Source: Betaproteobacteria bacterium (GTDB taxonomy: Bacteria > Pseudomonadota > Gammaproteobacteria > Burkholderiales > Usitatibacteraceae). Taken from it: 64,000 nucleotides of DNA. The notes beneath the pieces were generated by a model. The model worked only from the letters and a program-made list of their open reading frames with translations, did not search any database and was not told where the DNA came from. The stretch covers positions 249,636-313,635 of the forward strand of contig JADKJU010000005.1 of the NCBI GenBank assembly GCA_016720855.1, written 5' to 3'. How positions within the stretch are numbered: the stretch's first letter is position 1; each line of letters opens with the position of its first letter. Positions 14,044-38,967 of the stretch are shown piece by piece. The translations under genes were made by a program, and so were the position numbers.

Positions 14044-14053
14044 GGGGTCACCA

Positions 14054-17625: not shown

Positions 17626-17637
17626 CCGTGCCGTCGT

Positions 17638-18444: not shown

Positions 18445-18452
18445 CGGAGGGG

Positions 18453-20998: not shown

Positions 20999-21911
20999 CC
21001 GCGAGCAGGTTCATGGTGACCACGATCACCGCGGCGATGAGGCTGATCGCCTGCACGACCGCCACCTCGCGCTTCTCGACGGCGTTGATGAGGACGAGAC
21101 CCAGGCCGGGGTAGCCGAAGACCTTTTCCACGACGATGATGCCGCTGAGCAGGCCCGCCACATAGAGCGCGGCCGAGTTGAGCGCGGGGATGACGGAAGC
21201 CGGAAGCGCGTGGCGCAGCACGATGCGCAGGCGCGAGGCGCCGGCGAGGCGGGCTCGCTCGACGTAGTCGCTGTTGAGCGACTCGATGAACCCGGCGCGC
21301 ACGAGCCGCACCAGGTGCGCGATCGAGCCGATCACCACGGTGAGCACCGGCAGGAACGCAGCCCCGATGAGTGCCGACGGCGGATCGTTCGTGAACGCGG
21401 TGATGACGGCCGGGAAAACCGGGATCCAGATCGCGAAGCAGAGTATGAGGAAGTTGCCGGACGCGAACTCGGGGATCGAGTAACCCAGGATCGCGCCGGA
21501 GGACGCGGCGAAATCCGGCGCTCGCCCGCGCCAGAATGCCGCCGCGATGCCGATGGCGAGGGCGGCCGGGATCGCGACCAGCGCGGTGACCAGCCCCAGC
21601 AGCAGCGAGTTGCGCAGCGGGTAGGCGATCACCTCGGTCACGTTCGCCCTGCCGATGATGGTCGTGCCGAAATTGCCCCCGACGGCGCCGGAGAGCCACT
21701 CGACGTAACGAACGGCGGCCGGCCGGTCCAGGCCGAGCTCCGCGCGCTTTCGCGCGAAGTCGGCCTCGGTCATTTCCGCCGCCTCGTCCGCGGTGAGGCT
21801 AACCTGAAGGGCGTCCCCGGGCAGGATCTCCGTGGACACGAATACCAGCACCGTCACCAGCCAGATCACGAGTAACGACAGCGCGAGCCGCCGCCCGATC
21901 GCCTTCAGCAT
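20955..21911 (-). CDS. ABC transporter permease (DppB/OppB-like)
   Basis: 318 aa with typical N-terminus MLKAIGRRLALSLLVIWLVTVLVF. Confidence 0.85.
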   Translation of the reverse strand: MLKAIGRRLALSLLVIWLVTVLVFVSTEILPGDALQVSLTADEAAEMTEADFARKRAELGLDRPAAVRYVEWLSGAVGGNFGTTIIGRANVTEVIAYPLRNSLLLGLVTALVAIPAALAIGIAAAFWRGRAPDFAASSGAILGYSIPEFASGNFLILCFAIWIPVFPAVITAFTNDPPSALIGAAFLPVLTVVIGSIAHLVRLVRAGFIESLNSDYVERARLAGASRLRIVLRHALPASVIPALNSAALYVAGLLSGIIVVEKVFGYPGLGLVLINAVEKREVAVVQAISLIAAVIVVTMNLLADAAVMALDPRARSR

Positions 21912-21912
21912 C

Positions 21913-23460
21913 TCAGGCCTTCCACACCTCGTCGAAGCGGATCGACCAGAACTGCGAGTGGTTCGCGAGCCCGTGGACGTTCGACTTGTGCAGCAGCATG
22001 TTGCGGCGCCCCACGGGGTGGATGGCCGGAACCTCGTCGGCGAGAATCTGCTGCATGCGCACGTACAGGAACTTGCGCTTCGCCATGTCCGGTTCCGCGA
22101 CCGCCTCCGCGTAGAGCCTCATGTACTCGTCGCAGCCCGGGCCGCTCCAGTAGCCGCTCTCGTTGTTGTCGGGGCGCATGCGGTAGAGGCTCACGCCGGG
22201 ATTGCGCACGCCCGAAGGGCCGTAGGCGAAGCGGTGCTTGCGGGTCTTCGCCTTGTCCTCGACTCGCCAGTCGCGGTAGCCGTCGGAAGGACGCTGCTCG
22301 ATGGGGAGCGTGATGCCGGCGTCCTTCACCGTTTGAGAGACGACCTGGAAGACGCGCGGGATCTCGGGCCACGAGGCCGTGAAGTAGAAGGTGGGCAGCG
22401 TGATGCCGTTGGGATGGCCGGCTTCGGCGAGCAGCCTCTTCGCCTTCGCGACGTCGCGCTTGAAGGTGATCGGGAGGAACTCCGGATTGGCCGGCGTGAG
22501 GTGCGAGTCGTTGCCCACCCAGCCGGTCTTCGCGCCGTAGACGATCCGCATCACCTTCTCGCGGTCGATGGCGAGCGCGAACGCCTGCCGGATGCGCTTG
22601 TCGTTGAAGACCGAACCCTCGTACTTCGGCAGGATCATGAGGGCCTGGTCGCCCGCAAGCGCCGTATTGAGGACCGCGCCGGGAAGGCGCTCGAGCTCGG
22701 GAAGCAGGCCGGGGTCGACGCCGAGCACCGCGTCGAAGAGCCCGCCGCGAAAACCGTTCAGGGCGCTTTCCATGCGCCCCGGCGAACTCGCAATCTCGAG
22801 CCGGTCGACGTAGGGAAACCCCTTTCGCCAGTAGTTGGCGTTGCGTTCCATGACGAGCCGGCGCTTCGGATCGAGGTCGACTATCCGGAAGGGGCCGGTG
22901 CCGATGCCGTCCAGCCCGATCGTCGCGATGGGCGCGGCCGGCATGATCATCAGCTGGTACTCGCCCAAGATGAACGGAAACTCGCTGTTGGGCTTGTCGA
23001 GGTGAATGCGCACCTTGTGCGTTCCGGTCTTCTCCACCTTCCTGATCTGCCGCGCGAAGGAGGTCTTCTCCTGGTGGAAGGCGAAGGAGGAGACCACGTC
23101 GTCGGCGGTCATGTCCCTGCCGTTGTGGAACACCACCCCCTCGCGCAGCTGGATGTCCCAGACCTTGACGTCGGTGCTGGGCGTCCATGACGTGGCGAGC
23201 TCGGGCTCCACCTGCAGCCGGTCGTTCACGTAGGCGAGCCCGTTGAAAGCGCTGCGCGTATTGATGTCGAGCAGGTAATAGGGGTGGCGGCCGTTGTTCG
23301 CGTCCCCCATGCGGTTGTTGGGATAGAGGTTGGTGTAGACGAACTTCCCGCCGGCCCTGGGCTTGGGCTGCGCCAGCGCCTCGGCAGGCCCGAGAATGTC
23401 CTTCAGGCCCAGGCCGGCGAGCGCGGCACCGCCAGCGACGAACAGTTCACGACGATTCAT
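21913..23460 (-). CDS. ABC transporter substrate-binding protein, family 5 (peptide/opine/nickel type), Tat-exported
   Basis: 515 aa with twin-arginine signal MNRRELFVAGGAALAGLG...ALA. Family-5 SBP length and composition. Confidence 0.8.
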   Translation of the reverse strand: MNRRELFVAGGAALAGLGLKDILGPAEALAQPKPRAGGKFVYTNLYPNNRMGDANNGRHPYYLLDINTRSAFNGLAYVNDRLQVEPELATSWTPSTDVKVWDIQLREGVVFHNGRDMTADDVVSSFAFHQEKTSFARQIRKVEKTGTHKVRIHLDKPNSEFPFILGEYQLMIMPAAPIATIGLDGIGTGPFRIVDLDPKRRLVMERNANYWRKGFPYVDRLEIASSPGRMESALNGFRGGLFDAVLGVDPGLLPELERLPGAVLNTALAGDQALMILPKYEGSVFNDKRIRQAFALAIDREKVMRIVYGAKTGWVGNDSHLTPANPEFLPITFKRDVAKAKRLLAEAGHPNGITLPTFYFTASWPEIPRVFQVVSQTVKDAGITLPIEQRPSDGYRDWRVEDKAKTRKHRFAYGPSGVRNPGVSLYRMRPDNNESGYWSGPGCDEYMRLYAEAVAEPDMAKRKFLYVRMQQILADEVPAIHPVGRRNMLLHKSNVHGLANHSQFWSIRFDEVWKA

Positions 23461-23546: not shown

Positions 23547-24659
23547 TCAGATCTCGGCCGCCCCGGCGATGAGCGTCGAGAGCTTCGCCGTCTGGCTCGT
23601 GTAGGGCACCACGACCGCCGCGAAAGCGCGCTGCGAGTCGAGCACCTTCTTGAAGAACGGGTCCTTGGCCTCGAGGGCTCCCAGCACCTTCTTCGCCGAC
23701 TTGATGAAGGCCGGCGCATAGTCCGGCGGCGCGTCGAAGACCGTGACGCCCTTCTTCTTGATCTCCACGAGCGCCTTGGCGTTCTCGACCTGGAAGTACA
23801 TGATCGAGTCGAAGAGCGAGGTGTTGATCGCGACCTCGACGATCGCCTTCAGGTCCGGCGGGAGCGCCTTCCACTTCGCGCCGTTGATCACGATGTCGGC
23901 GATGTCGATGGCCTGGTGGATGCCCTGGATCGAGTAGAACTTGAAGACGTCCTGCAGGCCCACCTTGATGTCGCTCGCGGGGTTGATCCACTCCACCCCG
24001 TCGATCACGCCGCGCTCGGCCGCGGGGATGAGCTCGGCGCCGGAGAGGTTCACCGGGATGCCGCCCATGTCCTTGAGCACGTCGCTCGGCAGCCCCGAGG
24101 AGATGCGGAAGCGCATCTTCGTGAACTCGGCAACCGTCTTCGGCGGCTTCTTGAACCAGCCGAAGCACTCGGGTCCGTCCGCCGCGTAGAGAAACGCCAT
24201 CACGTCCGTCTTGAGCATCTTCTGGTAGTACTCGAGGTAGAGCTCACGGCCCCCGCCCTGCAGGTACCACGCGAGCTGGCCCATCTGGTCGAGGCCGCTG
24301 CCGGAGCCGCCGAGGGGCGAGCTGAAAAGGCCGCCTGCCGGATGCTTGCCCGTGGCGTAGTGCGTCCACCACTGGCCTGAGTCGATCACGCCCTTGTTCA
24401 CGGCATCGAGGATCTCGTTGGGCTTCACGATGGCGCCGCTCGTGAGGACCTCGATCTGCAGGCGCCCAGCCGACATCTTGTTGATGTTGGCGGAGAACCT
24501 GCCCAGCAGGTCCATGTGCGGCGTGCCCGAGGGATTGGCGCTCTGCAACTTCCACTTGATGGGCTGGCCCTGGGCCTGCGCTGCGGCCGGGATCAACGCC
24601 GCACCGGCCGCGAGGCCCACACCGGCGGTTTTCAGGAACTTTCTGCGTTGCATGGTCAT
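23547..24659 (-). CDS. dctP: TRAP transporter substrate-binding protein (DctP family), Tat signal
   Basis: 370 aa. MTMQRRKFLKTAGVGLAAGAA...AQA. It follows dctQ and dctM on the same strand. Confidence 0.85.
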   Translation of the reverse strand: MTMQRRKFLKTAGVGLAAGAALIPAAAQAQGQPIKWKLQSANPSGTPHMDLLGRFSANINKMSAGRLQIEVLTSGAIVKPNEILDAVNKGVIDSGQWWTHYATGKHPAGGLFSSPLGGSGSGLDQMGQLAWYLQGGGRELYLEYYQKMLKTDVMAFLYAADGPECFGWFKKPPKTVAEFTKMRFRISSGLPSDVLKDMGGIPVNLSGAELIPAAERGVIDGVEWINPASDIKVGLQDVFKFYSIQGIHQAIDIADIVINGAKWKALPPDLKAIVEVAINTSLFDSIMYFQVENAKALVEIKKKGVTVFDAPPDYAPAFIKSAKKVLGALEAKDPFFKKVLDSQRAFAAVVVPYTSQTAKLSTLIAGAAEI

Positions 24660-24686
24660 CTCCTCCTTGCTTGGGGTGGGTGGAGC

Positions 24687-26009
24687 CTACTTCGGACCGA
24701 ACACGAGGTTCGGGACATACAGGATGATCTGCGGGAAGAAGTAGAGGATCAGGACGGCAATCCATTGCAGGGCCATGAACGGCAGCATGCCCTTGTAGAT
24801 GTCCGCCAGATCCCATTGCGGCATGATGCCCTTCAGGTAGTAGGCCGACAACGCGACCGGCGGCGAGAGCCAGCAGGTCTGCAGCGTCACGGCGAGCAGG
24901 ATGCTGAACCACACCATGTCGACATTGAGGGCGGTGAGCAGGGGCAGGAAGATCGGCACGATGATGACGACGATCGGCACCCACTCCAGCGGCCATCCCA
25001 GGATGAAGCACAGCACCAGGATCGACAGGATGAGCAACTCGGGCGAGATATTCCACGCGACCATCACGTTGGCGATGTAGGTCGGCGTGCCGAGCGCGGA
25101 GAAGACGGACCCCAGGAACGTGGAGGCGACGAGCAGGACCATCACCATGCTCGCGGTCTGCGCCGTCCGGAACACCGAGTCCTTGAACACCGCCCACGTG
25201 AGGCAGCGATGGGCCGCCGCGGCCACCAGGGCGCCGATGCAGCCGAGGGCTGCGCCCTCGGTCGGCGTGGCCCAGCCCGAGACGATCGCCCCCAGCGTCG
25301 AGAGGATCAGCAGCGTTGGCGGCATCATGCCCAGCAGCAGCTCGCGGGCGATGTAGCTCTTCGGCACGTCGAGTTCCTTCGCCGAGAGCGGCGGCCCCAG
25401 GCTCGGGTTTCTCCACACACGCACGGCGGTGTAGGTGAAATAGAGCGCCGCGAGGAGGATGCCCGGCAGCAGCGCAGCACCATAGAGCCGGGCGACCGAC
25501 ACGGAGAGCACCGGGCCCATCACGACCAGCATCACGCTCGGGGGGATGAGAATGCCGAGCGTGCCGCCGGCGCAGATCGTCCCCGCGGACAGCCTCACGT
25601 CGTAGCCCGAGCGCATCATCACCGGCGCGGCCATGAGCGCGATGATCGTCACCGAGGCGCCGACGATGCCCGTGGCGGCCGCGAAGAGCGCCGCCGTGAA
25701 GATGGTCGCGAGGTAGAGCGAGCCGTGCACGCGCCCGAAGGCGAGCTGTACCGCGTGGAACAGGCGGTTCATGATTCCCGCGCTCTCCAGGACGTAGCCC
25801 ATGAAGGTGAAGAGCGCGACGGCGGCGAGCACCGTCTCCATCATCGAGTCGATGACCTGGTAGGTCATCAGGTAGAACACGCGATCGCCCAGGCCGATGT
25901 AGCCGAACACCATCCCCAGGAAGACCAGCGTGAAGGAGATCGGGAAGCCGCCGAGGATGACGACGAACATCATCCCCAGCAGAACGAGGCCCAGGACTTC
26001 GTTGCTCAT
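24687..26009 (-). CDS. dctM: TRAP transporter large permease
   Basis: 440 aa polytopic membrane protein with a typical DctM sequence. Confidence 0.9.
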   Translation of the reverse strand: MSNEVLGLVLLGMMFVVILGGFPISFTLVFLGMVFGYIGLGDRVFYLMTYQVIDSMMETVLAAVALFTFMGYVLESAGIMNRLFHAVQLAFGRVHGSLYLATIFTAALFAAATGIVGASVTIIALMAAPVMMRSGYDVRLSAGTICAGGTLGILIPPSVMLVVMGPVLSVSVARLYGAALLPGILLAALYFTYTAVRVWRNPSLGPPLSAKELDVPKSYIARELLLGMMPPTLLILSTLGAIVSGWATPTEGAALGCIGALVAAAAHRCLTWAVFKDSVFRTAQTASMVMVLLVASTFLGSVFSALGTPTYIANVMVAWNISPELLILSILVLCFILGWPLEWVPIVVIIVPIFLPLLTALNVDMVWFSILLAVTLQTCWLSPPVALSAYYLKGIMPQWDLADIYKGMLPFMALQWIAVLILYFFPQIILYVPNLVFGPK

Positions 26010-26039
26010 GCGTGCTCCCCGGGGCGTCCGAAGGCGGGA

Positions 26040-26579
26040 TCAGACGAGTTCACTGGGCGCCCCCTGGTTGCGGTAGTCGACGCCCGTGCGCAGCGTCTTG
26101 AAGCACTTGATCACCTCAGCGACGCCCTGCACCAGAAGCAGGGCGGACGAGAGCGGAATCACCGACTTGTACCAGTAGGCCGGCGGGCGCCAGGTGGTCA
26201 TGAGGGCCTCCTTGAGATCCCAGGACTCGCGGGCGAAGTCGAAACTGACCCAGGTGAACATCGCCATGCCGGGCAGGAAGAAGAGCAGGTACTGCGCGAT
26301 GTCCATGCGCACCTGCGTCTTGAGCGACCAGTCCTTGGAGAAGAAGTCCGTGCGGATGTGCTTCTGCAGGTGCAGCGTGTACGCCGCGGCCAGGAAAAAG
26401 TGCGCGCCGTAGCACATCGTCGCGATGTCGTTCGCCCAGATGGTCGGCGTGAAGAACTTGCGCACCATGACTTCGTAGGCGAGGACGAGGAACATCGGCA
26501 CGATGAGCCAGGAGCTCAGCTTGCCCGCCCCGATGCTCACGCGGTCGATGAAATCGGCGATCTTGTCCAGTGTGTCCAT
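26040..26579 (-). CDS. dctQ: TRAP transporter small permease
   Basis: Only the last 179 codons of track ORF 26040-27008 are coding. ATG is at complement 26577-26579 (MDTLDKIADFIDRVSIGAGKLSSWLIVPMF). Four predicted TM segments. Confidence 0.8.
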   Translation of the reverse strand: MDTLDKIADFIDRVSIGAGKLSSWLIVPMFLVLAYEVMVRKFFTPTIWANDIATMCYGAHFFLAAAYTLHLQKHIRTDFFSKDWSLKTQVRMDIAQYLLFFLPGMAMFTWVSFDFARESWDLKEALMTTWRPPAYWYKSVIPLSSALLLVQGVAEVIKCFKTLRTGVDYRNQGAPSELV

Positions 26580-26656
26580 TGCGGCGGCGTTCCTCCTCGT
26601 TGTTCTTCTTCCGAATCCGGTCCCGTCGCTGCGCAGCGGCGCGCGCGGGTTGCCGC

Positions 26657-26911
26657 CTATCGCGCCTCGGTGAGCCTCCCGGCGCCGATTCCGTACCCCG
26701 TGAGCGTGCGGTCCGCGTGCCGCAGCCGCCATGAGAGCATGCGCCTCGCGTAGCGCAGCGACGCCTCGCGGTGCGCCGGGTCCTCCGCCACGTTCCGCAG
26801 CCGGTGCGGGTCGCACTGCAGGTCGAACGGGAGCGGCTCGAGGCCGGCGAACGCGGGAAGCGGTCGTCGTCCTCGCGACCCGGCCCGGGACACCTGGTTC
26901 CGGAAATTCAT
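26657..26911 (-). pseudogene. 84-codon ORF resembling only the extreme C-terminus of a sulfatase/AP-superfamily enzyme (probable gene remnant)
   Basis: MNFRNQ...LEPLPFDLQCDPHRLRNVAEDPAHREASLRYARRMLSWRL resembles the sulfatase C-terminal motif (L.DL..DP.E..N.A.DP........L...L). It has a strong GGAGGAG Shine-Dalgarno 6 nt before the ATG. It sits in the 440-bp gap between the ALDH gene and dctQ. Confidence 0.4.
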
Positions 26912-27021
26912 TTGGGTTCTCCTCCCGTCGGTGGGGGCGGTCCCGGCAAACGCCGGGCCGCCCCTCATGATGGAGCCGCGGTGCTTCTCCTTCGCGACGG
27001 CCCGGCACGGGCCGCCACGTC

Positions 27022-28491
27022 CTACCACCTCATGTGAATGTTCTTCACCTGCGTATAGCTCACCATTTCCTCGAACGTCTCCTCGACGCCCAGGCCGCTC
27101 TGCTTCCATCCACCGTACGGCGCACCGAGGTAGCGGCCGCTGCCGTTGATCCAGACGTAACCCGCGTCCACCCGCTCCGCCGTCTCCATGGCGAGATCCA
27201 GCCGGTTGGTCACGATGGCCGCCGTGAGGCCGTACTGCGTGCCATTCGCCATCGCGATCATCTCTTCCATGTCCGTCCACGCGAGGACGGACATCACCGG
27301 CCCGAAGATCTCCTCCGAAGCGATACGCATGTCCTGGCTCACGCCGTCGAACACCGTGGGCGCGAGAAAGAGGCCGTCGGCGAGCTTCGGGTCCGCCGGT
27401 CGCCCGCCCCCCGTGAGCAGTTTCGCCCCCTGCGCCTTGCCCGCCTCGATGAAGCCCGTGATGCGGTCGTACTGCTTGCGCGAGACGATGGGCCCGAACT
27501 CGTTCGACTCGATCCACGGGAAGCCCACGGGCAGAGCTTCGGCGAGCTTCACGATCTCGTCCACGACGGCGCGGTGCAGCGACCCGTGCACGAACACGCG
27601 CGAGGTCGAGCTGCAGGACTGGCCCTGCCGGTTCATGTTCATCCCCTTGATCGCGGCGGCCGCGGCCTGCTTCGGATCCGCGTCGGGGAAGATGATGATG
27701 GGATTCTTGCCGCCCAGCTCCAGCGTGCAGCGCTTGAGTCCCTCGGCGGCGCCCCGGGCGACGAGGCGCCCGGTCTCCACCGAGCCCACGAATCCGATGC
27801 GCGAGACAAGCGGGTGCGCAACGAGCGCCGCGCCCGTGCGGCCGTCGCCCGCGACCACGTTCACGACGCCCGGCGGGAAGATCCCGTCGGCCAGTTCCGC
27901 CAGGCGGAAGCTGGAAATGGGCGCCTGCTCCGAACTCTTGATCACCACGCAGTTGCCGGCCGCGAGCGGCGCCGCGGCCTTCTCGCCGCAGAAGCGGAAC
28001 GGGTGGTTGAAGGGATTGAGCTTCGCGACGACACCGTAGGGTTGCCGGCGGGTCAGGTTGAGGTGGCGCGGCCCCTGCGAGCTCGTCTCGCCTTTCACCT
28101 CGGTGATGAGGCCGGCGAAGTAATCGAGGCTGTCCGCGGTCCAGTGCATGTCGCCTTCCATGCCCTTCACCGCATTGCCCGCGTCCACGGCGTCGATGAT
28201 CGCCAGCGCCTTCGCCTCGTCGCGGATGCGCCTGGCGAACGCCTCGAGGCACTTCGCGCGCTCCTTGAGGCCCACCTTGCGCCAGGTCTCGAAGCCCTTC
28301 GCCGCCGCCTTCACGGCCAGGTCGACGTCCGTTTCGTCCGCGTACGGCACCGTGGCGAGCACGCGCCCCGTCGAGGGGCTCGTGGAATCGAAGGTCCTGC
28401 CGCTAGCCGCCGCGTGCCAGGCGCCGCCGTAGTAGTGGCCCCGGTTGGTGAACGGCAGGTCCGGCTCGCCGTGCGGATTGGCGCCGCTCAC
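27022..28491 (-). CDS. NAD(P)-dependent aldehyde dehydrogenase (operonic with phnA)
   Basis: I propose a GTG start at 28491, which overlaps the ADH stop (GTGA). Catalytic motifs ELGGKNP and QGQSCSS. 489 aa. Confidence 0.85.
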   Translation of the reverse strand: MSGANPHGEPDLPFTNRGHYYGGAWHAAASGRTFDSTSPSTGRVLATVPYADETDVDLAVKAAAKGFETWRKVGLKERAKCLEAFARRIRDEAKALAIIDAVDAGNAVKGMEGDMHWTADSLDYFAGLITEVKGETSSQGPRHLNLTRRQPYGVVAKLNPFNHPFRFCGEKAAAPLAAGNCVVIKSSEQAPISSFRLAELADGIFPPGVVNVVAGDGRTGAALVAHPLVSRIGFVGSVETGRLVARGAAEGLKRCTLELGGKNPIIIFPDADPKQAAAAAIKGMNMNRQGQSCSSTSRVFVHGSLHRAVVDEIVKLAEALPVGFPWIESNEFGPIVSRKQYDRITGFIEAGKAQGAKLLTGGGRPADPKLADGLFLAPTVFDGVSQDMRIASEEIFGPVMSVLAWTDMEEMIAMANGTQYGLTAAIVTNRLDLAMETAERVDAGYVWINGSGRYLGAPYGGWKQSGLGVEETFEEMVSYTQVKNIHMRW

Positions 28492-29594
28492 GGGACGATC
28501 GCCGCGCGCAGCACCTTGCGGTCCTCGGCGTCCTTCATGGCCTGGCCGACCTGGTCGAGACTGTACTTTCCGTCCACCAGCGCGTGGAAGGGGAAGCGCT
28601 TGCGGTTGCCGTGCACGAAATCGAGCGCCTCGATGAGGTGCCTGGGGTGGTAGTTGTGCACGCCGCGGATGGTGAGGAGCTTGCGCAGGATCATGTTGGC
28701 GTCGATCGTGACGTTCGAGCCCGGGTTCACGGTGCCGCCGAACACGAAGCGCCCGCCCGTGCGCAGGAACTGCAGGCCGGGGATCGCCACCTCGGGGTAG
28801 CCGCACACCTCGATCACCGCGTCGGCGCCTTCGGGGCGGCAGAGCGCGCGCACCTGCTCCACGAGCCCCGCTTCGGGCATCGACGAGGGATCGAACACGT
28901 GGTCGCAGCCGAACGCCAGGCCCAGTTCGCGCCGCGAGGCGACGTTGTCCAGGCCGATCACCAGGCGCGCTCCGCGACCCTTGGCGAGCGCGGCGCCATA
29001 GAGGCCGAGGAGCCCCAGGCCGAAGATGACGACGGCATCGCCCAGCTTCACCTGCGCCTGCTCCGTGACGGACACCATCGTCGCCACGCCGCAGTTGACC
29101 GGGGTCGCCTCCTCATCCGTGAGGTCGTCCGGGAGCTTCAGGATCCAGGACCTCGGCAGCACGTAGCAGTACTCGCCGAACCCGCCGTGGTGGTGGGGTT
29201 CCGTCGTCACCGCCATGTGGCCGTACTTGTCCACACCCGGGGACTTCTGCGGGAGGTCCAGCACCTCGGTGTAGTAGTTGTTGCCCGGGATGAAGTACTC
29301 GCTCCAGGTGATGCGGTCGCCGGACTGTAGCGGTGCCCCGCGCATGTCATGAGTGATGCCCTCGCCCAGTTCGAGGATCGTGCCGATGATCTCGTGACCC
29401 AGCAGGCCGGGGCACGGATTCGGCCGGTGGCCCAGGTAGGAGTGGATGTCCGACCGGCAGATGGTGGACATGCGGATCTTCACGAGGACCTCGTCCCGGC
29501 GCGGCGCGCGCACCGGGAAGAGGCGGATCTCGAAGGGCTTGTTGGGCGCGTCGTAGATCGCGAGGCGGCCCATCAGGTCGGCGGCGATCGCCAT
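28488..29594 (-). CDS. zinc-dependent (MDR) alcohol dehydrogenase of the phosphonate-catabolism-associated type
   Basis: 368 aa. Zn ligand contexts CRSDIH and GHEIIG, NAD fold VIFGLGLLGL. It is wedged between phnA and the ALDH gene with 1-nt and 4-nt junctions. Confidence 0.85.
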   Translation of the reverse strand: MAIAADLMGRLAIYDAPNKPFEIRLFPVRAPRRDEVLVKIRMSTICRSDIHSYLGHRPNPCPGLLGHEIIGTILELGEGITHDMRGAPLQSGDRITWSEYFIPGNNYYTEVLDLPQKSPGVDKYGHMAVTTEPHHHGGFGEYCYVLPRSWILKLPDDLTDEEATPVNCGVATMVSVTEQAQVKLGDAVVIFGLGLLGLYGAALAKGRGARLVIGLDNVASRRELGLAFGCDHVFDPSSMPEAGLVEQVRALCRPEGADAVIEVCGYPEVAIPGLQFLRTGGRFVFGGTVNPGSNVTIDANMILRKLLTIRGVHNYHPRHLIEALDFVHGNRKRFPFHALVDGKYSLDQVGQAMKDAEDRKVLRAAIVP

Positions 29595-29595
29595 G

Positions 29596-30867
29596 TCAGT
29601 GCGCGGGGCCGTTGAGGGCGAACTCGAAGAGCTGCCAGCTCTTGAGCACCTGCACGCCGCCCTTGATCCGGTAGTCGTCGTTGAGGGGCCGGTTGATGAT
29701 GAACGGCACCTTGGCCTCCGAGACCCCGCCGTGGGTGCGCAGGCGATGGCCCTCGAGACCCTTGAGGTCGTGGTCCTTCTCCGAGGCGCCGATGCACACG
29801 TCGTGCGTGGAAATCACCACCACGTCGGCCTCGCGGTCCTCCGGCAGGCTGTGCACCTCGCAGGCGTCCTTCTTGCCGAGGACCGACTCGATGCCCCGGA
29901 TCGGCCGGATCACTTCCATCACCTGCTCCGGGGTCACCTTGCCCGCCCCGCCGGTGATCCACACGCGCACGAAGCCGCCGAGCGCGCCGTGGTGGGCGAC
30001 GAAGGCGTCCGTGATCGGGCAGATCACCTGCACGGCGCCCTTGCCGAGCTTCGCGTCGAGGATGTCCTGCAACCAGATGACGTTGGGCTTGCCCTCGGCG
30101 TTCGACTTGTCGTTCATGCCGTGGTCGGCCGTGAGCGCCACCGTGGCGCCCAGCTCCGCCAGGCGCCCGAAGCGCCAGTCGAGCTCCTGGTAGAAGCGGC
30201 GGGCCTCGGACTCGGTCGGCGCGTACTTGTGCTGGATGTAGTCCGTGAGCGAGAGGAACAGGATGTCGCGGTGTGACTGCTCGAGCAGCTTGATACCGGC
30301 GTCCAGCACGAATAGCGAAAGTTCCATCGAGTACATGTCGGGCTGCGGGTGGCCCAGCCAGGCGGCCGCGTTGTCGATGCCGTGCTCGGCCAGCGTGGTC
30401 GAGGCGGACTTCTCCGAGGAAAAGCACACGTTGCCCTTCGTGACGTCGAGGCCCTTGCCGAGCTGCGTCCTCAGCTTGTCCTTGGCCGTGATCGCGACCA
30501 CCTTCGCGCCGGCATCGGCGAAGCCCTTGAGCACGGTGTCGCCGCGCAGCAACTCCGGGCCCGTCATCACGACCGCCTTGCCCGTCTTCACGTCCAGGTA
30601 GTAGTTGCCCGAGATGCCGTGCTTCGAGGCCGGCGTGCCGGTCACCACCGACATGTTGTTGGGGCAGGTGAACGACGGCACGGTGCCTTCGGCCACGACG
30701 GCGAAGCCTTCTTTCATGAACCGGGCGATGTTCGGGACGGCGCCTTCCGCGATGAACTGCTGCAGGTAGGCCGGGTCGCCGCCGTCGATGATCACGACGG
30801 CGACGGGCCGGTCCGGCCAGCGGTAGCTCGTGCCGTTCACCACGACGGGGGGTCTTGCGTTCGCCAT
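29596..30867 (-). CDS. phnA: phosphonoacetate hydrolase
   Basis: I prefer the start MANARPPVVVNG. AP-superfamily motifs are VIIDGGDP, PSFTCPNNMS (Thr nucleophile), LTDYIQHK and TADHGMN. Length and order match PhnA. Confidence 0.85.
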   Translation of the reverse strand: MANARPPVVVNGTSYRWPDRPVAVVIIDGGDPAYLQQFIAEGAVPNIARFMKEGFAVVAEGTVPSFTCPNNMSVVTGTPASKHGISGNYYLDVKTGKAVVMTGPELLRGDTVLKGFADAGAKVVAITAKDKLRTQLGKGLDVTKGNVCFSSEKSASTTLAEHGIDNAAAWLGHPQPDMYSMELSLFVLDAGIKLLEQSHRDILFLSLTDYIQHKYAPTESEARRFYQELDWRFGRLAELGATVALTADHGMNDKSNAEGKPNVIWLQDILDAKLGKGAVQVICPITDAFVAHHGALGGFVRVWITGGAGKVTPEQVMEVIRPIRGIESVLGKKDACEVHSLPEDREADVVVISTHDVCIGASEKDHDLKGLEGHRLRTHGGVSEAKVPFIINRPLNDDYRIKGGVQVLKSWQLFEFALNGPAH

Positions 30868-30967
30868 GAATCCACTCCTTCCCATGGGGCCGCCAGTCGG
30901 GCCTGGCAAGGCCGGGGCAGCGGGGTTTCCGATTGCGTTTGCCGAAAGCTAGCAGCTTCGCCTAATA

Positions 30968-30980
30968 TCGCATAAATCGA
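30968..30980. promoter_or_regulatory. candidate LysR-type T-N11-A box in the phnA / lysR divergent region
   Basis: TCG-CATAAAT-CGA (T-N11-A with a 3-bp dyad). It lies about 100 bp upstream of the phnA ATG and 30 bp upstream of the LysR ATG. Pattern match only. Confidence 0.3.
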
Positions 30981-31009
30981 AAATTCATCCAGACTCATCG
31001 TTTGAATCA

Positions 31010-31882
31010 ATGTATGAAAAGTGGCTCAAGGCGTTCCACATGGTGGCTTCCCACGGCGGCGTGGGAAGGGCCGCCAAGGCGCTGAACGTCGGCCAGCCCA
31101 CCATCTCGGCCCACCTCAAGACCCTCGAGGACTACTTCCGCGTGGAGCTCTTCTACCGCCAGGGACGGCGAGTGGAGCTCACCGAAGTGGGGCGATCCCT
31201 GCACGAGATCACCCGGAGCCTCTACGGCCACGAGTCCGAGGCCGTCGCTTTCCTGCGCTCCGCGGGCCGCAGCGAGCACGGGCGGCTGCGCGCCGGCGCG
31301 GTGGGGCCCTTCGACGTGATGGAGATGGTTCACGCGTTCCACGCAAAGCACCGGTGGGTGGACTTGTCCGTCGATGTCCTCCCGCGCCGGGAGTTGGTGA
31401 CCCGCCTGCGGGCCTTCGATCTGGACGTGGGGGTCTTCGCCGACGCACCGGAGGAAGCCGACTTCCACTCGTTCGTCTACGACCGCCACCCCGTGCGCAT
31501 CATCGTCCCGGCCCTGCACCGCCTGGCGCGAAGGAAGCGAATCCAGATCAATGACCTCGAGGGCGAACCCTTCGTCCTGCGCGACCCCTCGTCAGTCACC
31601 CGGCGGGCCTTCGAGCAGGCCCTGCAGCGCGCCGCCGTGAAGGTCCGCCCCGTCATCCAGACCAACAGCCGGGAAGCCGTCCGCGAGGCGGTCGCCCGGG
31701 GGATGGGGCTCGGCGTGATCTCGGAGCGGGAACACGCCCCGCACCCGAACATCCATGTCCTCACGGTCGAGGACGCCGACATGAGCACGGGCGCCTGGGT
31801 GGCCTGCCTCGCCGCCCGCCGCGGCCGCCCCCTCATCGACACGTTCATGAAGCTGGTCCAGCAGAACCGCCCGGCCGGATGA
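31010..31882 (+). CDS. LysR-family transcriptional regulator (divergent from the phnA operon)
   Basis: 290 aa with N-terminal wHTH FHMVASHGGVGRAAKALNVGQPTISAHLKTLE. Confidence 0.9.
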   Translation: MYEKWLKAFHMVASHGGVGRAAKALNVGQPTISAHLKTLEDYFRVELFYRQGRRVELTEVGRSLHEITRSLYGHESEAVAFLRSAGRSEHGRLRAGAVGPFDVMEMVHAFHAKHRWVDLSVDVLPRRELVTRLRAFDLDVGVFADAPEEADFHSFVYDRHPVRIIVPALHRLARRKRIQINDLEGEPFVLRDPSSVTRRAFEQALQRAAVKVRPVIQTNSREAVREAVARGMGLGVISEREHAPHPNIHVLTVEDADMSTGAWVACLAARRGRPLIDTFMKLVQQNRPAG

Positions 31883-31907
31883 CGGCGGCGGCCGTCATTT
31901 CGGTTTG

Positions 31908-31935
31908 TTGACAATCGAACCTCGCCCTGTAGATT
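31908..31935 (+). promoter_or_regulatory. sigma70-like promoter with overlapping dyad (candidate GntR operator)
   Basis: TTGACA (31908-31913), 16-nt spacer, TAGATT (31930-35). The inverted repeat GACAATC (31910-16) / GATTGTC (31932-38) brackets it. Confidence 0.4.
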
Positions 31936-32662
31936 GTCGCCATATCAACTTCACCTGCCCCGCCCCGTGCCCCAATCCACCGCCAAGCCCACGGAAGACC
32001 CGCCGCTCGCCGCCCGTGTGCACGCCGATATCGAGAGGCAGATCCTCTCGGGCAAGGTGCTGCCAGGAGCAAAGTTGGTCGAGGAGGACGTGGCCGACCG
32101 GCTGCGGGTGAGCCGCGGTCCGGTGCGCGAGGCCTTCCGCGCCCTCGAGCAGGCGGGCCTCGTCCGCATGGAGAAGAACCGCGGCGTCTTCGTGCGCGAG
32201 GTTTCCCTGCGGGAAGCCGACGAGATCTACGAAGTGCGCGCCGGGCTCGACGAGCTCATCGGCCGGCTGGTCGCCGCGCGGCTCACCGCCGCGCGCCTCG
32301 CCGAGCTGCGCCGCCTGCTCACCCGCATGGAGCTTGCCGCCCGCACCGAGGACGTGGACAGCTATTACCCCCTCAACGTGGCGTTCCACGATCACCTCGC
32401 ACTCGCCGCGGGCAACGGGACGCTCCTTGCCTCCTATCGCATCCTCGTGAACCAGCTGCACCTGTATCGGCGCGAGACGCTCGCGCGCGGCGCGGGCAGC
32501 TTCGACATCTCCACCAGCGAGCACCAGCGCATCGTCGACCTGCTCGCCGAAGGCGACGGCGTGAAGGCCGGCCAGCTCCTCTTCGAGCACGCGATGGAAA
32601 GCCGCGAGCGCCTGCACGCGACCCTCCAGACCCCGATCCGGAAAGACGCAGGAACCCCATGA
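31934..32662 (+). CDS. GntR-family (FadR/FCD subfamily) transcriptional regulator, phosphonate-utilisation associated
   Basis: wHTH LVEEDVADRLRVSRGPVREAFRALEQAGLV plus a helical FCD domain. The stop overlaps the next gene start (ATGA at 32659). The track start, TTG 31934, sits inside the putative -10 element, so the true start is probably downstream (for example GTG 31967). Confidence 0.8.
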   Translation: MSPYQLHLPRPVPQSTAKPTEDPPLAARVHADIERQILSGKVLPGAKLVEEDVADRLRVSRGPVREAFRALEQAGLVRMEKNRGVFVREVSLREADEIYEVRAGLDELIGRLVAARLTAARLAELRRLLTRMELAARTEDVDSYYPLNVAFHDHLALAAGNGTLLASYRILVNQLHLYRRETLARGAGSFDISTSEHQRIVDLLAEGDGVKAGQLLFEHAMESRERLHATLQTPIRKDAGTP

Positions 32663-34116
32663 ACGCCGCCGTGAGGCCCCCCAGCCGCCCCAGGTTCCGC
32701 GCCGAGGCCCTGCGCATCGGCGGCGAGCGCGTCGCACGCGATCGCGTGATCGAGGTGAGGAACCCGTACACCGGCGAGGTCGTGGGCACCGTCCCCAGGG
32801 CCTCCGTCGAGGACGTGCGCCGCGCCTTCGCGATCGCGCGCGCGTACCGCGCCACGCTCTCGCGCCACGAGCGCTCCAGCCTCCTCCTCAGGGCCGCCGC
32901 CCTTCTTCGTGCCCGGGTCGACGAGGCTTCGGACCTGATCACGCTCGAGTCGGGCCTGTGCAAGAAGGACACGGTCTACGAAGTGGGTCGCGTGTGCGAT
33001 GTGCTGACCTTCGCCGCGATGGAAGCGCTCAGGGACGACGGCCAGTCGTTCTCCTGCGACCTCACGCCGCACGGCAGGAAGCGCCGCGTCTTCACGCGAC
33101 GCGATCCGCTGATAGGCGTCATCTCGGCCATCACGCCGTTCAACCACCCGATGAACCAGGTGGCGCACAAGGTCGCGCCGTCGGTGGCGACCAACAACCG
33201 GATCGTGCTCAAGCCCACCGAGAAGACGCCACTGTCGGCGCTGTATCTCGCGGACCTGCTCTACGAGGCCGGCCTGCCGCCCGAGATGCTCCAGGTCGTG
33301 ACGGGCGACCCGCGCGAGATCGCGGACGAGCTCATCACCAACGAGCACGCCGACATGGTCACCTTCACCGGCGGCGTCGCCATCGGCAAGCACATCGCCC
33401 GGACGGCCGGTTACCGCCGCGTGTGCCTCGAACTGGGCGGCAACGACCCGGTCATCGTCATGGAGGACGCCGACATCGAGGAGGCCGCCGCGCTCGCTGC
33501 GCAGGGCTCCTACAAGAACAGCGGACAGCGCTGCACCGCCGTGAAACGCATGCTCGTCCACGAGAAGGTGGCCGACCGATTCGTCGAGCTCCTCGTCGAG
33601 AAGACGAAGGCCTGGACGTACGGCGACCCCTCCGATCCCGCCGTGGATATGGGTACGGTCATCGACGAAGCGGCGGCGAGGACCTTCGAGGCACGCGTGA
33701 ACGAGGCCATCGCGCAAGGCGCGCGGCTGCTCGCCGGCAACGAGCGCCGCGGCGCGCTCTATTCCCCCACCGTGATCGACCGCGTCATGCCGGAAATGAC
33801 CGTCGTCCGCGAGGAGACCTTCGGCCCCGTCTCCCCCGTGATGCGCTTCTCGTCGATCGACGAAGCGATCGCTCTTTCAAACGCGACGGCCTTCGGGCTC
33901 TCTTCGGGCGTGTTCACCAACCGCCTGGACTACATCGCGCGCTTCATCGCGGAGCTCAACGTGGGCTCGGTCAACGTGCGCGAGGTGCCCGGCTACCGGC
34001 TCGAGCTCACGCCCTTCGGCGGCATCAAGGACTCGGGCCTGGGCTACAAGGAAGGCGTGCAGGAGGCGATGAAGAGCTTCACGAACCTGAAGACATTCAG
34101 CCTCCCGGCGTTCTGA
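32659..34116 (+). CDS. phnY: aldehyde dehydrogenase, putative phosphonoacetaldehyde dehydrogenase
   Basis: 485 aa. ELGGNDP and GQRCTAV catalytic motifs. Coupled to the GntR phosphonate-type regulator. The PhnY subfamily assignment is from memory and context only. Confidence 0.6.
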   Translation: MNAAVRPPSRPRFRAEALRIGGERVARDRVIEVRNPYTGEVVGTVPRASVEDVRRAFAIARAYRATLSRHERSSLLLRAAALLRARVDEASDLITLESGLCKKDTVYEVGRVCDVLTFAAMEALRDDGQSFSCDLTPHGRKRRVFTRRDPLIGVISAITPFNHPMNQVAHKVAPSVATNNRIVLKPTEKTPLSALYLADLLYEAGLPPEMLQVVTGDPREIADELITNEHADMVTFTGGVAIGKHIARTAGYRRVCLELGGNDPVIVMEDADIEEAAALAAQGSYKNSGQRCTAVKRMLVHEKVADRFVELLVEKTKAWTYGDPSDPAVDMGTVIDEAAARTFEARVNEAIAQGARLLAGNERRGALYSPTVIDRVMPEMTVVREETFGPVSPVMRFSSIDEAIALSNATAFGLSSGVFTNRLDYIARFIAELNVGSVNVREVPGYRLELTPFGGIKDSGLGYKEGVQEAMKSFTNLKTFSLPAF

Positions 34117-34236: not shown

Positions 34237-35943
34237 GTGCAGACACTCCTCAATCTTCTCGCCAGCGTGGCCCTGCTCGTCTGGGGCACGCACATCGTGC
34301 GCACGGGCATCCTGCGCGTCTACGGCGCCGACCTGCGGCGCGTGCTGTCGAAGAGCGTCTCCAGCCGCGGCTCGGCCTTCCTCGCGGGGCTCGGCGTCAC
34401 CAGCCTCGTGCAGTCCTCGAGCGCAACCGCGCTCATCACCAGCGGCTTCGTCTCGCAGGAACTCATCGCGCTCGCCCCGGCTCTTGCCATCATGCTGGGC
34501 GCCGACGTGGGCACCTCGCTCATGGCGCAGGTGTTTTCGCTGGATCTCTCGTGGCTTTCGCCGCTCGCCATCTTCTTCGGCGTGATCTTCTTCCTCACGC
34601 GCAGGAACACCAAGGCCGGGCAGATCGGCCGCGTGTCGATAGGGCTCGGTCTCATCATCCTCGCCCTGCAGCTCATCCAGGCGGCCGCGAAGCCCATCGT
34701 GTCGGCCGCGGGAACGAAGGTGCTGTTCGACTCCCTGACGGGCGACCCGATGCTCGACATGCTGATCGGCGCGCTGTTCGCCCTGTTCTCGTGGTCGAGC
34801 CTGGCGGTGGTGCTGCTCTCGGCCACGCTCGCCGCCACGAGCGTCATCTCGGTGCCCGTCGCGATGTGCCTCGTGCTGGGCGCAAACCTGGGCAGTGGCG
34901 CGCTCACGGTCTTCGCGACGATGGGCACGCCGGGCGGAGGGCGGCGGGTCGCCTTCGGCAACCTGCTCTTCAAGCTGGTCGGCTGCCTGGTGTTCTCGTT
35001 GGCCCTGCCGCTGGCGCTGCAGGCCATCGCGCATTTCGACGCCGACCCGCGCCGGCAGGTGCTGCACTTCCACGTGATGTTCAACGTGATCCTGGCCGGC
35101 GGCTTCATCTTCTTCACCGACTCCATCGCGCGCCTGCTGGAGAAGTGGCTCCCGGAAACCGCCGGCAGCGGCACCGTCACCGCCGAGCCCCGCCACCTCG
35201 ACGGCGGCGCGCTCGATACGCCGACGCTGGCCCTTGCCAATGCCGCGCGCGAGACGCTCAGGATCGGCGACATCGTCGAGCAGATGCTCAACGGCATGCT
35301 GGAAGTGCTGCGCACCAACGACGAGAAGCGGGTCGACGAGCTGATCCGCCTCGACGACGACGTCGACCGCCTCTACACCGCGGTGAAGCTCTACCTCACC
35401 CAGATCAGCCGCGAGGCGCTGGACGAAAAGGACGGCCGGCGCTGGGCCGAGATCATCTCGCTCACCATCAACCTGGAGCACGTGGGCGACGTGATCGAGC
35501 GCATCCTCGTCGACATCAAGGACAAGAAGATCGCGCACCGGCTCTCGTTCTCGGAAGCGGGGATGCAGGAACTCGCCGACCTGCATGCGAAGCTGGTGGC
35601 GAACCTGCGCCTGGGACTGTCGGTCTTCCTCACCGGGGACGTGAGGAGCGCGCAGATGCTCCTCGAGGAAAAGGAGAAGTTCCGCGACCTCGAGCGCTCC
35701 TACGCGAGCCAGCACCTCGACCGCCTCTCGGTCCAGTCGGTGCAGTCCATCGAGACGAGCTCGCTGCACCTGGACATCATCAGCGACATGCGCCGCATCA
35801 ATTCCTTCTTCTGCTCGACCGCCTACCCGATCCTCGAGCAGGCGGGGCAGCTGAGGAAGAGTCGGCTCAGGCCCGCCACAGCGGCCGGCGACGCCACGGG
35901 CGCCTTTACCGCCAAGACCGACCTGGCTCGCGGGGCCAAGTAA
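34237..35943 (+). CDS. Na/Pi cotransporter family protein with C-terminal PhoU-like domain (YjbB/NptA type)
   Basis: 568 aa with a GTG start. LLASVALLVWGTHIVRTGILRVYGADLR is the hallmark N-terminus. The C-terminal half has paired PhoU-like helical repeats. Confidence 0.85.
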   Translation: MQTLLNLLASVALLVWGTHIVRTGILRVYGADLRRVLSKSVSSRGSAFLAGLGVTSLVQSSSATALITSGFVSQELIALAPALAIMLGADVGTSLMAQVFSLDLSWLSPLAIFFGVIFFLTRRNTKAGQIGRVSIGLGLIILALQLIQAAAKPIVSAAGTKVLFDSLTGDPMLDMLIGALFALFSWSSLAVVLLSATLAATSVISVPVAMCLVLGANLGSGALTVFATMGTPGGGRRVAFGNLLFKLVGCLVFSLALPLALQAIAHFDADPRRQVLHFHVMFNVILAGGFIFFTDSIARLLEKWLPETAGSGTVTAEPRHLDGGALDTPTLALANAARETLRIGDIVEQMLNGMLEVLRTNDEKRVDELIRLDDDVDRLYTAVKLYLTQISREALDEKDGRRWAEIISLTINLEHVGDVIERILVDIKDKKIAHRLSFSEAGMQELADLHAKLVANLRLGLSVFLTGDVRSAQMLLEEKEKFRDLERSYASQHLDRLSVQSVQSIETSSLHLDIISDMRRINSFFCSTAYPILEQAGQLRKSRLRPATAAGDATGAFTAKTDLARGAK

Positions 35944-38786: not shown

Positions 38787-38967
38787 GATGTGCTCCTCCG
38801 TATTGTCGGTTGTCGTTCCGTGTAGGCCCTAGACTTGACCGCGCGAGTATCGCACAGGGTCCGGGGCGGCCGCATTGCGCCAGGCGGCCCCGTCGCGTTC
38901 CGCCCGGGACGCCATCGGCAGCGATCCCGGGGACCGCTACACTGTCTCCTTTCGCCAGGAGCCGCCC

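Follow-up and report, generated by a model that had tools for sequence, protein, structure and literature searches.

A candidate cluster for 2-hydroxyethylphosphonate uptake and degradation, with a TRAP transporter, in a betaproteobacterial phosphonate island

Results

Gene organisation around phnA

This study concerns a window of 64,000 nucleotides (nt), the whole stretch of DNA analysed, from a Betaproteobacteria bacterium of the Usitatibacteraceae (GCA_016720855.1, contig JADKJU010000005.1, positions 249,636 to 313,635), and in particular the phnA cluster within it, which we propose as a candidate system for 2-hydroxyethylphosphonate (HEP). The window was analysed by listing of open reading frames (ORFs), a gene map based on GC content at third codon positions (GC3), NCBIfam and Pfam family scans and direct reading of the gene junctions, so that the gene identities, junctions, conservation and co-occurrence given below are taken from the sequences themselves. 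ORFs and family scans reveal a co-directional minus-strand array encoding phosphonoacetate hydrolase (PhnA), a zinc-dependent alcohol dehydrogenase (ADH), an aldehyde dehydrogenase (ALDH) and the DctQ, DctM and DctP subunits of a tripartite ATP-independent periplasmic (TRAP) transporter, with a divergent lysR gene:

31010..31882, plus strand: LysR regulator (Pfam HTH_1 and LysR_substrate)
30868..31009, no strand: divergent phnA/lysR control region, 142 nt, AT-rich (sequence read)
29596..30867, minus strand: PhnA, phosphonoacetate hydrolase, C-P cleavage to acetate and phosphate (Pi) (TIGR02335)
28488..29594, minus strand: Zn-ADH of the medium-chain dehydrogenase/reductase (MDR) type, PbfG-like, putative HEP dehydrogenase (TIGR03366 as best family, with conserved residues)
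27022..28491, minus strand: ALDH of a distinct clade, putative phosphonoacetaldehyde dehydrogenase (PF00171)
26657..26911, minus strand: remnant of a sulfatase-family C-terminus, 84 codons (tblastx)
26040..26579, minus strand: DctQ, TRAP small membrane subunit (PF04290, 80.6 bits)
24687..26009, minus strand: DctM, TRAP large membrane subunit (PF06808, 230 bits; TIGR00786, 253.5 bits)
23547..24659, minus strand: DctP, probably of the TakP/lactate-binder subgroup, putative HEP-binding protein (PF03480, 115.5 bits)

All the genes that an earlier note on this DNA had named are present, on the strand and at the positions it gave, and the 1-nt gap between phnA and ADH, the GTGA overlap between ADH and ALDH and the divergent LysR gene could be read directly from the sequence. 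At the first junction the phnA TGA is followed by a single c and the ADH ATG, and at the second the ADH end, ...CCG TGA, shares GTGA with the GTG start of ALDH. The phnA ATG at 30867 has AAGGAG upstream, and the dctQ ATG at 26579 has GAGGAGGA upstream. The three TRAP genes are all present, adjacent and on the same strand, score above the Pfam gathering thresholds and are separated by 27 and 30 nt. The proposal of a single phnA-ADH-ALDH-dctQMP operon holds as far as the common strand and the tight phnA/ADH/ALDH junctions are concerned, but dctQMP begins only after a long gap beyond ALDH. The identity of the PhnA enzyme is practically certain, with 513.3 bits on the TIGR02335 equivalog (cutoff 407.55) and profile positions 2-406 of 408 covered, and the gene at 29596-30867 is the sole phnA of the window, giving the single tblastn match in the whole of it.

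The alcohol dehydrogenase and its gene neighbourhood

The ADH very probably oxidises HEP to phosphonoacetaldehyde, an assignment that draws on the published biochemistry of the homologous PbfG. Piazza et al. (Protein Sci, 15 September 2026; PMC13576164) describe PbfG as pf00107 dehydrogenases that recur in phnX or phnY-phnA clusters, and the enzyme of Cellulosimicrobium protaetiae, which has a four-Cys structural Zn site, oxidises HEP to phosphonoacetaldehyde with a kcat/KM of 8.9e4 M-1 s-1 and high specificity; the PhpC/PsrA-type iron-dependent ADHs (Fe-ADHs) are the other class of HEP dehydrogenase in that work. The earlier statement that this ADH clade lacks a proven substrate has to be modified accordingly, since a homologue is a demonstrated HEP dehydrogenase (PMC13576164), albeit one from a separate, four-Cys branch.

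The catalytic Zn ligands C46, H67 and C168 of the window ADH are invariant among 121 family representatives, most of which also keep R57 (101/121), S48 (116/121), H126 (96/121) and N314 (102/121), and E68 is likewise conserved with the family. Mapped by published residue numbers, the ADH residues are in register with PbfG C45, H66, C166, R56, S47, H124 and N298, with the Asn that corresponds to N298 being uncertain between N314 and N300. The protein also has an NAD-type GxGxxG motif and Asp216. Several observations weigh against treating this ADH simply as PbfG. Its best family, TIGR03366, gives 268.5 bits, far above the runner-up family (108 bits) but under the cutoff of 328.1; the residue matching uses the published numbering rather than a direct alignment with the C. 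protaetiae sequence, and no ADH-family protein among those compared matches that numbering exactly; and the four-Cys structural Zn site is absent, with no Cys in the lobe loop. This loop has four or five Cys in 107 of the 121 representatives and one at most in 13 others, 12 of which have none. By exhaustive search among representatives of 50%-identity clusters, identity falls from 57% for the nearest relative to 43% for the next full-length one and 31-41% for most other full-length ones, and TIGR03366 members share 33-43% identity with the window ADH. On the TIGR03366 model P0241, which is 57% identical to the ADH, scores 288 bits, and most relatives of 35-41% identity exceed the cutoff with 330-413 bits, P0261 being an exception at only 306.

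The window ADH belongs to a divergent proteobacterial sister clade of PbfG without the four-Cys structural Zn. This clade matched at least 589 species-level genomes, and its best 80 members (59-90% ADH identity) come almost entirely from Beta-, Alpha- or Gammaproteobacteria, mostly as metagenome-assembled genomes (MAGs). Limnohabitans sp. MMS-10A-178 is a carrier of this ADH clade that is in culture, as is Usitatibacter palustris, which has a PhpC-type enzyme with the TRAP clade described below. The main text of PMC13576164 lists only Actinomycetota, Planctomycetota, Bacteroidota, Gemmatimonadota and Verrucomicrobiota as PbfG phyla. A search seeded by a high-scoring TIGR03366 representative led to Planctomycetota (Gemmata) proteins, not to the actinobacterial enzyme, and the one Gemmata context inspected, an aminotransferase gene, a major facilitator superfamily (MFS) gene and ADH, was uninformative.

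The gene neighbourhoods of these best 80 of at least 589 matching genomes were compared, and related loci are labelled below by L-numbers, of which L006 is Usitatibacter palustris CP053073. phnA is present in 68 of the 80, nearly always on the same strand and directly before ADH, which is not what chance adjacency would give. An ATP-binding cassette (ABC) importer of PhnCDE type occurs in 62 loci and the TRAP system of the window in four. An ALDH of the window's clade (62-88% identical) follows ADH in 29 loci, and PhnY is found in 26. The clade thus clusters recurrently with phnA and a phosphonoacetaldehyde dehydrogenase, as described for PbfG. Homology with PbfG, the kept residues and the phnA-ADH pairing support the route that the earlier note had predicted, in which HEP would be converted through phosphonoacetaldehyde and phosphonoacetate to acetate and Pi. 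The closest ADH relative (90% identity) lies in L035, on MAG contig CAWAOC010000008.1, where the layout is ADH-ALDH-PhnCDE followed by a 2-aminoethylphosphonate (AEP) ABC system and phnW, and no phnA is found within 10 kb of ADH.

The TRAP system

DctP carries a twin-arginine signal, RRKFLK, and its closest solved structures are TakP (2hzk/2hzl; E = 1e-40) and the lactate binder TTHA0766 (2ZZV; 2e-34). Its pocket was mapped by sequence alignment only, with the TakP ligand contacts taken from PMC1839085 and a HMMER alignment. The anion-binding Arg177 of TakP corresponds to R185 and Tyr100 to Y101, while the cation site Q156, E214, W215 and E240 corresponds to E164, E223, W224 and Q249, with a Q/E swap. 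The TakP residues F40, T46, Y99, T153, W239 and P243, which are pocket residues and their neighbours, are N42, H48, H100, D161, H248 and D252 in DctP, where W98 is also found, and in this way the hydrophobic pocket of TakP is replaced by polar residues, namely three His, one Asn and two Asp. Among 121 clade members (73-100% identity) N42, H48, W98, H100, Y101, D161, E164, R185, H248, Q249 and D252 are invariant, and E223 and W224 are each kept in 120.

The genomic context of this DctP clade is strikingly uniform. A HEP-dehydrogenase-type gene stands beside DctP in all six long-contig contexts of 74-83%-identical proteins, being a TIGR03405 Fe-ADH in, for example, Usitatibacter palustris, Microvirga, L090 and L091, and a member of the window's MDR clade in L093 and L094; the scanned Fe-ADHs score 445-537 bits on TIGR03405 (cutoff 424). 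A metagenome scan for DctP gave 80 further loci, 22 of them complete, that is, with the whole set of three TRAP genes, flanked by 1.3 kb or more on each side. All 22 have a HEP-dehydrogenase-type gene (11 a TIGR03405/PhpC Fe-ADH, nine this MDR clade and two a four-Cys MDR enzyme of about 41% identity), whereas phnA occurs in 13 and phnW in one. The clade tracks the alcohol dehydrogenase and not PhnA or PhnW, which favours HEP over phosphonoacetate or AEP as the substrate. In minimal modules in which lysR is divergent from Fe-ADH-dctQMP, no phnA lies within 7-10 kb. The arrangement of lysR divergent from phnA-ADH-ALDH-dctPQM recurs in L094/L126, L145 and L165 with gaps of 15-47 nt, the 47-nt gap being that of L094. 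In ADH-centred loci TRAP fills the slot held elsewhere by PhnCDE, and L001 shares the gene order of the window on either side of the transporter cassette (ALDH 79%, family-5 binding protein downstream 85%), the cassette itself being swapped. The prediction of a phosphonate-importing TRAP system is strongly supported by this context, and we consider it likely that HEP is what it imports.

The best-surviving alternative is that phosphonoacetate, AEP or some unrelated small carboxylate is what the TRAP system takes up and that HEP, if used, enters otherwise. DctP-type binding proteins canonically bind carboxylates, of which phosphonoacetate has one and HEP none. The conserved Arg of the family, kept here as R185, normally forms a salt bridge with the carboxylate, and pyruvate, 2-oxoacids or lactate are the ligands of the closest relatives of solved structure, but the pocket that accommodates the 2-oxoacid side chain in TakP has turned polar in DctP. 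Phosphonoacetate, besides its carboxylate, has in its favour that it is the direct substrate of PhnA; yet the clade follows HEP-dehydrogenase genes and not phnA, and the bare Fe-ADH-dctQMP modules do without a nearby phnA. As for AEP, the two invariant pocket Asp, D161 and D252, would suit an amine as well as a hydroxyl and could pair with the AEP ammonium, whereas phnW is found in just one of the complete loci and a dedicated AEP ABC transporter is already encoded in the window and in several relatives. The carboxylate preference of the family and the two Asp do count against HEP, but on balance we regard this alternative as unlikely and retain HEP as the preferred ligand.

Modules composed of a divergent lysR, a transporter and a HEP dehydrogenase without a nearby C-P hydrolase were also noted in L074, L075 and L078 (Rhodospirillales MAGs) and in L007-9, L091, L102, L107, L111-113, L146 and L164. 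They include both ABC importers with MDR-ADH and TRAP systems with Fe-ADH, and the window pairs TRAP with MDR-ADH. The pattern is suggestive of a mobile cassette for uptake and activation, which would supply phosphonoacetaldehyde to enzymes whose genes lie elsewhere.

A full-text literature search with TRAP-transporter and phosphonate terms found no described phosphonate TRAP system among the results listed, in agreement with the earlier claim that such import would be new. In a 2023 review of phosphonate degradation TRAP receives no more than a passing mention, the PbfG paper (PMC13576164) never uses the word, and the paper on PsrA of B. cenocepacia makes neither a TRAP nor a phosphonate link. 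Within the searchable literature, the system would be the first phosphonate TRAP transporter that we could find described.

The aldehyde dehydrogenase

The ALDH scores under the cutoff of every named NCBIfam model. The best-scoring named model is that of betaine-aldehyde dehydrogenase (BADH), with 427 bits against a cutoff of 593 on NF009725 and 416 against 669 on TIGR01804, and the PhnY model TIGR03250 gives 242.6 bits against 635.65. In comparison with the BADH structures 6wsa and 2wox, the aromatic-box Tyr, Trp and Trp are His163, Glu170 and Ser, and Arg453 stands where those enzymes have Glu; BADH identity is ruled out by the score and the loss of the aromatic box. The protein shares 79% identity with the ALDH of L001 and only 32% with the window's own PhnY (32659-34116), which is a true one, with 880 bits on TIGR03250 (cutoff 636) and E = 3e-175 to S. 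meliloti PhnY, 4i3t.

Four basic residues, H163, R166, R288 and R453, are invariant in the 29 ALDH orthologues. In ALDH2 numbering, H163, R166 and R453 presumably occupy the substrate-tunnel positions 170, 173 and 459, and R288 position 297, beside tunnel residue 296. H163 also aligns with His163 of PhnY, and R453 with R447. A tunnel of such basic character would suit phosphonoacetaldehyde, which is an anionic aldehyde, and we think there is a good probability that the ALDH oxidises this compound irreversibly to phosphonoacetate. The clade appears to replace PhnY: none of the 80 ADH loci has both enzymes, and the window is the only locus that carries the two. A literal Fisher test for this exclusivity (p 6e-7) was rejected, because the pattern requires only about four changes on the neighbour-joining tree of the ADH, so that the p value is inflated and overstates independence.

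The small number of switches is one of three points against this assignment. Another is that, of the Arg triad that we take to bind the phosphonate in PhnY (R111, R291 and R447 in the numbering of the window's PhnY, consistent with the 4i3t sequence), only R447 is kept, the equivalents of R111 and R291 being Trp117 and Ser292. The third is that the window has, besides the ALDH, a true PhnY and also PhnX 16 kb away, so the ALDH is not strictly required here. The phnA-ADH-ALDH route of the earlier note needs a corresponding correction: an ALDH is present and coupled to ADH, but it is not a PhnY orthologue, and the true PhnY lies outside the region which that note covered.

The presence of both PhnY (32659-34116) and PhnX (10101-11114) in the window can also be taken to mean that the ALDH is an acetaldehyde or general aldehyde dehydrogenase, acting on the PhnX product or in detoxification, while PhnY makes phosphonoacetate. 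PhnX stands next to ALDH in two other TRAP and ALDH loci, L016 and L093, and the ExaC model for acetaldehyde dehydrogenase gives the protein 345 bits, although this is well under the 900-bit cutoff. In 28 of the 29 ALDH loci, however, phnA is present and PhnY and PhnX are both absent within 10 kb (PhnX is found within that distance in only one), which leaves the ALDH as the sole visible source of the PhnA substrate there. Acetate and Pi released by PhnA require no ALDH, the GTGA coupling to ADH fits the clearing of the ADH product, and the invariant basic tunnel would be unexpected for acetaldehyde. We consider this explanation improbable, slightly more so than carboxylate or AEP import by the TRAP system, and phosphonoacetaldehyde remains the favoured substrate. 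One possibility is that the ALDH and PhnY are both retained through separate regulation of HEP-derived flux by LysR and AEP-derived flux by GntR, with one shared PhnA.

Direction of the dehydrogenase reaction and extent of the operon

The equilibrium of the PbfG reaction favours HEP, and phosphonoacetaldehyde reduction is faster than HEP oxidation (PMC13576164). The ADH could on this ground work reductively, buffering toxic phosphonoacetaldehyde derived from AEP, or, as the divergence of its clade from TIGR03366 members would allow, act on another hydroxy-phosphonate or a hydroxy-sulfonate. phnW is indeed present in 31 of the 51 loci without ALDH, often directly 3' of ADH, but it is rare in ALDH-type loci (3/29). 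In addition, stand-alone modules of a transporter and ADH are sensible only for an imported alcohol, PbfG has mere trace activity on isethionate (PMC13576164), and, given the established specificity of PhnA for the C2 phosphonocarboxylate, an alcohol that feeds PhnA would have to be HEP. An equilibrium towards HEP requires a downstream pull (PMC13576164), and the coupling of ADH with ALDH fits this logic. The reductive or alternative-substrate reading is very improbable in our judgement, and HEP oxidation is the reading carried forward.

The gap between the ALDH stop (27022) and the dctQ ATG (26579) measures 442 nt, which means that ALDH and dctQ are not tightly coupled and counts against a single transcript. 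It contains an ORF, 26657-26911, which matches a 510-aa Sulfatase/SGSH_C gene at its 3' end with 60-71% identity over 55 aa (tblastx); the full gene is found near related clusters in L029, L031 and L022. The ORF bears the sulfatase-type C-terminal motif FDLQCDPHRLRNVAEDP and is probably a pseudogene scar, left when a rearrangement introduced the TRAP cassette. Neither a terminator-like nor a promoter-like site was found on the minus strand of the gap, and co-transcription across the scar is plausible. No meaningful repeats were found at the flanks of the TRAP cassette, and an Rfam scan of 7000-41000 gave zero family matches. That dctQMP is instead an independently expressed neighbour, placed there by the rearrangement, finds support in the remnant-bearing gap and in a short GC palindrome that precedes dctQ (26614-26651), but in view of the common strand, the gap free of such sites and the tight packing of close DctP relatives with phnA-ADH-ALDH elsewhere, as in L094, we give it hardly any credence, and the functional link would stand even if dctQMP were transcribed separately.

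The LysR regulator and the control region

The best NCBIfam model for LysR is TIGR03339, 'AEP-catabolism-associated LysR', with 263.7 bits, below the cutoff of 341.1. Orthologues with 51-60% identity are divergent from phnA-ADH-ALDH or PhnCDE-ADH in other genomes, and they also accompany PhnCDE-ADH modules without phnA, which weakly hints that the effector may be HEP rather than phosphonoacetate. The protein is a probable substrate-responsive activator of the operon. In the 142-nt phnA/lysR region the sigma-70 consensus is not matched, and no Pho box is recognisable by eye in this promoter region, for which no formal scan was made; the lack of a recognisable Pho box points to substrate induction. 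A search for a conserved LysR box in the lysR-phnA intergenic regions of 12 loci, as palindromes of 15-nt span with complementary ends of 3-5 nt, gave nothing convincing; ATCG-N7-CGAT occurs in 4 of the 12 and is absent from that of the window.

The surrounding phosphonate island

The operon is part of a phosphonate island that spans about 28 kb (roughly 7764-35943) and has a single phnA. The other main genes of the island are:

7764-8990, minus strand: TIGR03364 FAD oxidoreductase, AEP module
8902-10074, minus strand: alanine dehydrogenase, AEP module
10101-11114, minus strand: PhnX phosphonatase, AEP module
11155-12303, minus strand: PhnW, AEP module
12304-16277, minus strand: PhnS2/T2/U2-type AEP ABC importer, AEP module
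31934-32662, plus strand: GntR regulator (TIGR03338, 259 bits against a cutoff of 271.5)
32659-34116, plus strand: PhnY, true phosphonoacetaldehyde dehydrogenase (TIGR03250)
34237-35943, plus strand: Na/Pi-cotransporter-PhoU fusion (TIGR00704, PF01895)

With a complete AEP module at 7764-16277, the island has both a PhnX and a PhnY-PhnA route for phosphonoacetaldehyde. The GntR and PhnY genes overlap by 4 nt, and between lysR and the GntR unit lie a hairpin resembling a terminator (31877-31900) and a site resembling a promoter (31908-31935). In relatives such as Usitatibacter this unit includes phnA between GntR and PhnY, which is not the case in the window. The Na/Pi-PhoU gene adjoins PhnY in many loci, with Pi efflux or phosphonate transport as candidate roles.

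Between the AEP module and dctP, at 16342-23460 on the minus strand, a gene for an alkaline-phosphatase-superfamily protein (PF01663, not PhnA) stands beside an Opp/Nik-type ABC importer, whose family-5 binding protein is the one shared with L001 at 85% identity and in the same position. ABC and sulfatase/PhoD genes of similar kind follow phnA-ADH clusters in L002-5, L022, L029 and L031. We speculate that the products of these genes could import phosphonate esters or conjugates and hydrolyse them. Beyond the Na/Pi gene, a TAXI-type TRAP system on the minus strand (fused QM 35979-37832, binding protein 37848-38828) is followed by a glutamine-synthetase-like gene on the plus strand (38839-40347); the QM gene has an 83%-identical counterpart beside Na/Pi in L025 and the glutamine-synthetase-like gene an 84%-identical one following Na/Pi in L090, and both may belong to the island. 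An IS4-family transposase gene (3028-4245, plus strand; NF033592, 278 bits) is located some 3.5 kb beyond the island edge. Further away, the TRAP-linked Fe-ADH of L006 finds a tblastn match of 29% identity on the plus strand (~44098-44955), which is followed by a third ALDH gene (46069-47574, plus strand), whose product is 30-35% identical to the operon ALDH and PhnY.

Discussion

Taken together, our analysis makes it reasonably likely that the phnA cluster is a self-contained module for HEP uptake and its degradation to acetate and Pi. The substrate assignments come from sequence and gene context, those of ALDH, DctP and LysR in particular from gene context together with residue patterns. In the mechanism that we propose, Tat-exported DctP would bind HEP in the periplasm through Arg185, the three clade-specific His and the retained cation site, and DctQM would bring it into the cell by ion-coupled symport. 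The PbfG-like Zn-ADH would then oxidise HEP with NAD+ to phosphonoacetaldehyde, a thermodynamically unfavourable step, which the translationally coupled ALDH would pull forward by irreversible oxidation of the aldehyde to phosphonoacetate, and PhnA would finally hydrolyse the C-P bond to release acetate and phosphate. The divergent LysR probably switches the operon on upon sensing HEP or an intermediate of the pathway. A more specific proposal combines two parts. In the first, DctP is the first phosphonate-dedicated TRAP binding protein, recognising HEP through its Arg, three His and a cation and repeatedly paired with three types of HEP dehydrogenase; in the second, a BADH-like ALDH with a convergent basic tunnel has replaced PhnY. 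This combination we hold to be about evenly balanced between right and wrong.

Among the phosphonates of marine and soil dissolved organic matter HEP is a major one, and to our knowledge dedicated HEP catabolism was recognised only in 2026. The HEP pathway itself is known chemistry since then (PMC13576164), whereas the TRAP importer, the non-PhnY ALDH and the proteobacterial PbfG-like ADH without structural Zn look like an undescribed local variant. If our reading is true, a large proteobacterial branch of HEP dehydrogenases, present in at least 589 species-level genomes, has been overlooked, and phosphonate uptake extends beyond the ABC systems reviewed so far. Counts of phosphonate users in metagenomes would also be affected, because the TRAP genes are now annotated as 'mannitol/chloroaromatic' or 'lactate/2-oxoacid' transporters. 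It would further mean that TRAP binding proteins can recognise a phosphonate instead of a carboxylate, and that PhnY has a non-orthologous substitute that is missed by current phnY marker-gene surveys.

Several known systems can be compared with the cluster. Like the PbfG clusters, it has an MDR pf00107 Zn-dehydrogenase beside phnA, the same proposed chemistry, and the Zn ligands and R/S/H/N residues in register; it differs from them in an ADH that is below the TIGR03366 cutoff and without the four-Cys Zn, in its Pseudomonadota host, in its non-PhnY ALDH and in its TRAP importer. The PhnW-PhnY-PhnA pathway of S. meliloti (PMC10574752; PhnY 4I3T-4I3X) shares the conversion of phosphonoacetaldehyde through phosphonoacetate to acetate and Pi by an NAD-dependent ALDH and then PhnA, but it enters from the amine AEP and the window operon would enter from the alcohol HEP. 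A close counterpart of the transporter is found in Usitatibacter palustris (CP053073, L006), in which a PhpC/PsrA-type Fe-ADH (TIGR03405) accompanies dctQMP; its DctP and DctM are 83% and 82% identical to those of the window, it has the divergent LysR and an adjoining GntR-phnA-phnY-Na/Pi module, and its putative substrate is the same. In contrast to the window, its dehydrogenase belongs to the unrelated pf00465 class, and phnA lies within the GntR operon, not with the dehydrogenase. DctP shares with TakP, the 2-oxoacid binder of R. sphaeroides (2HZL, PMC1839085), and with TTHA0766 the Tat signal, the Arg, the Tyr and the four-ligand cation site, but its pocket is polar and its gene lies among genes of phosphonate catabolism rather than of keto-acid metabolism. 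The phnR-phnA locus of P. fluorescens 23F (PMC99623 and PMC3815843, via PMC10574752) also has a divergent LysR-type gene beside phnA and is phosphonoacetate-inducible, but it is not known to include ADH, ALDH or TRAP genes. Finally, the PhnCDE and AepXVW/PhnSTUV ABC importers are ATP-driven and have an unrelated binding-protein fold, in contrast to the ion-driven TRAP system of the window, but such importers hold the same operon slot in 62 of the 80 loci, which points to the same role for the TRAP system, namely phosphonate uptake.

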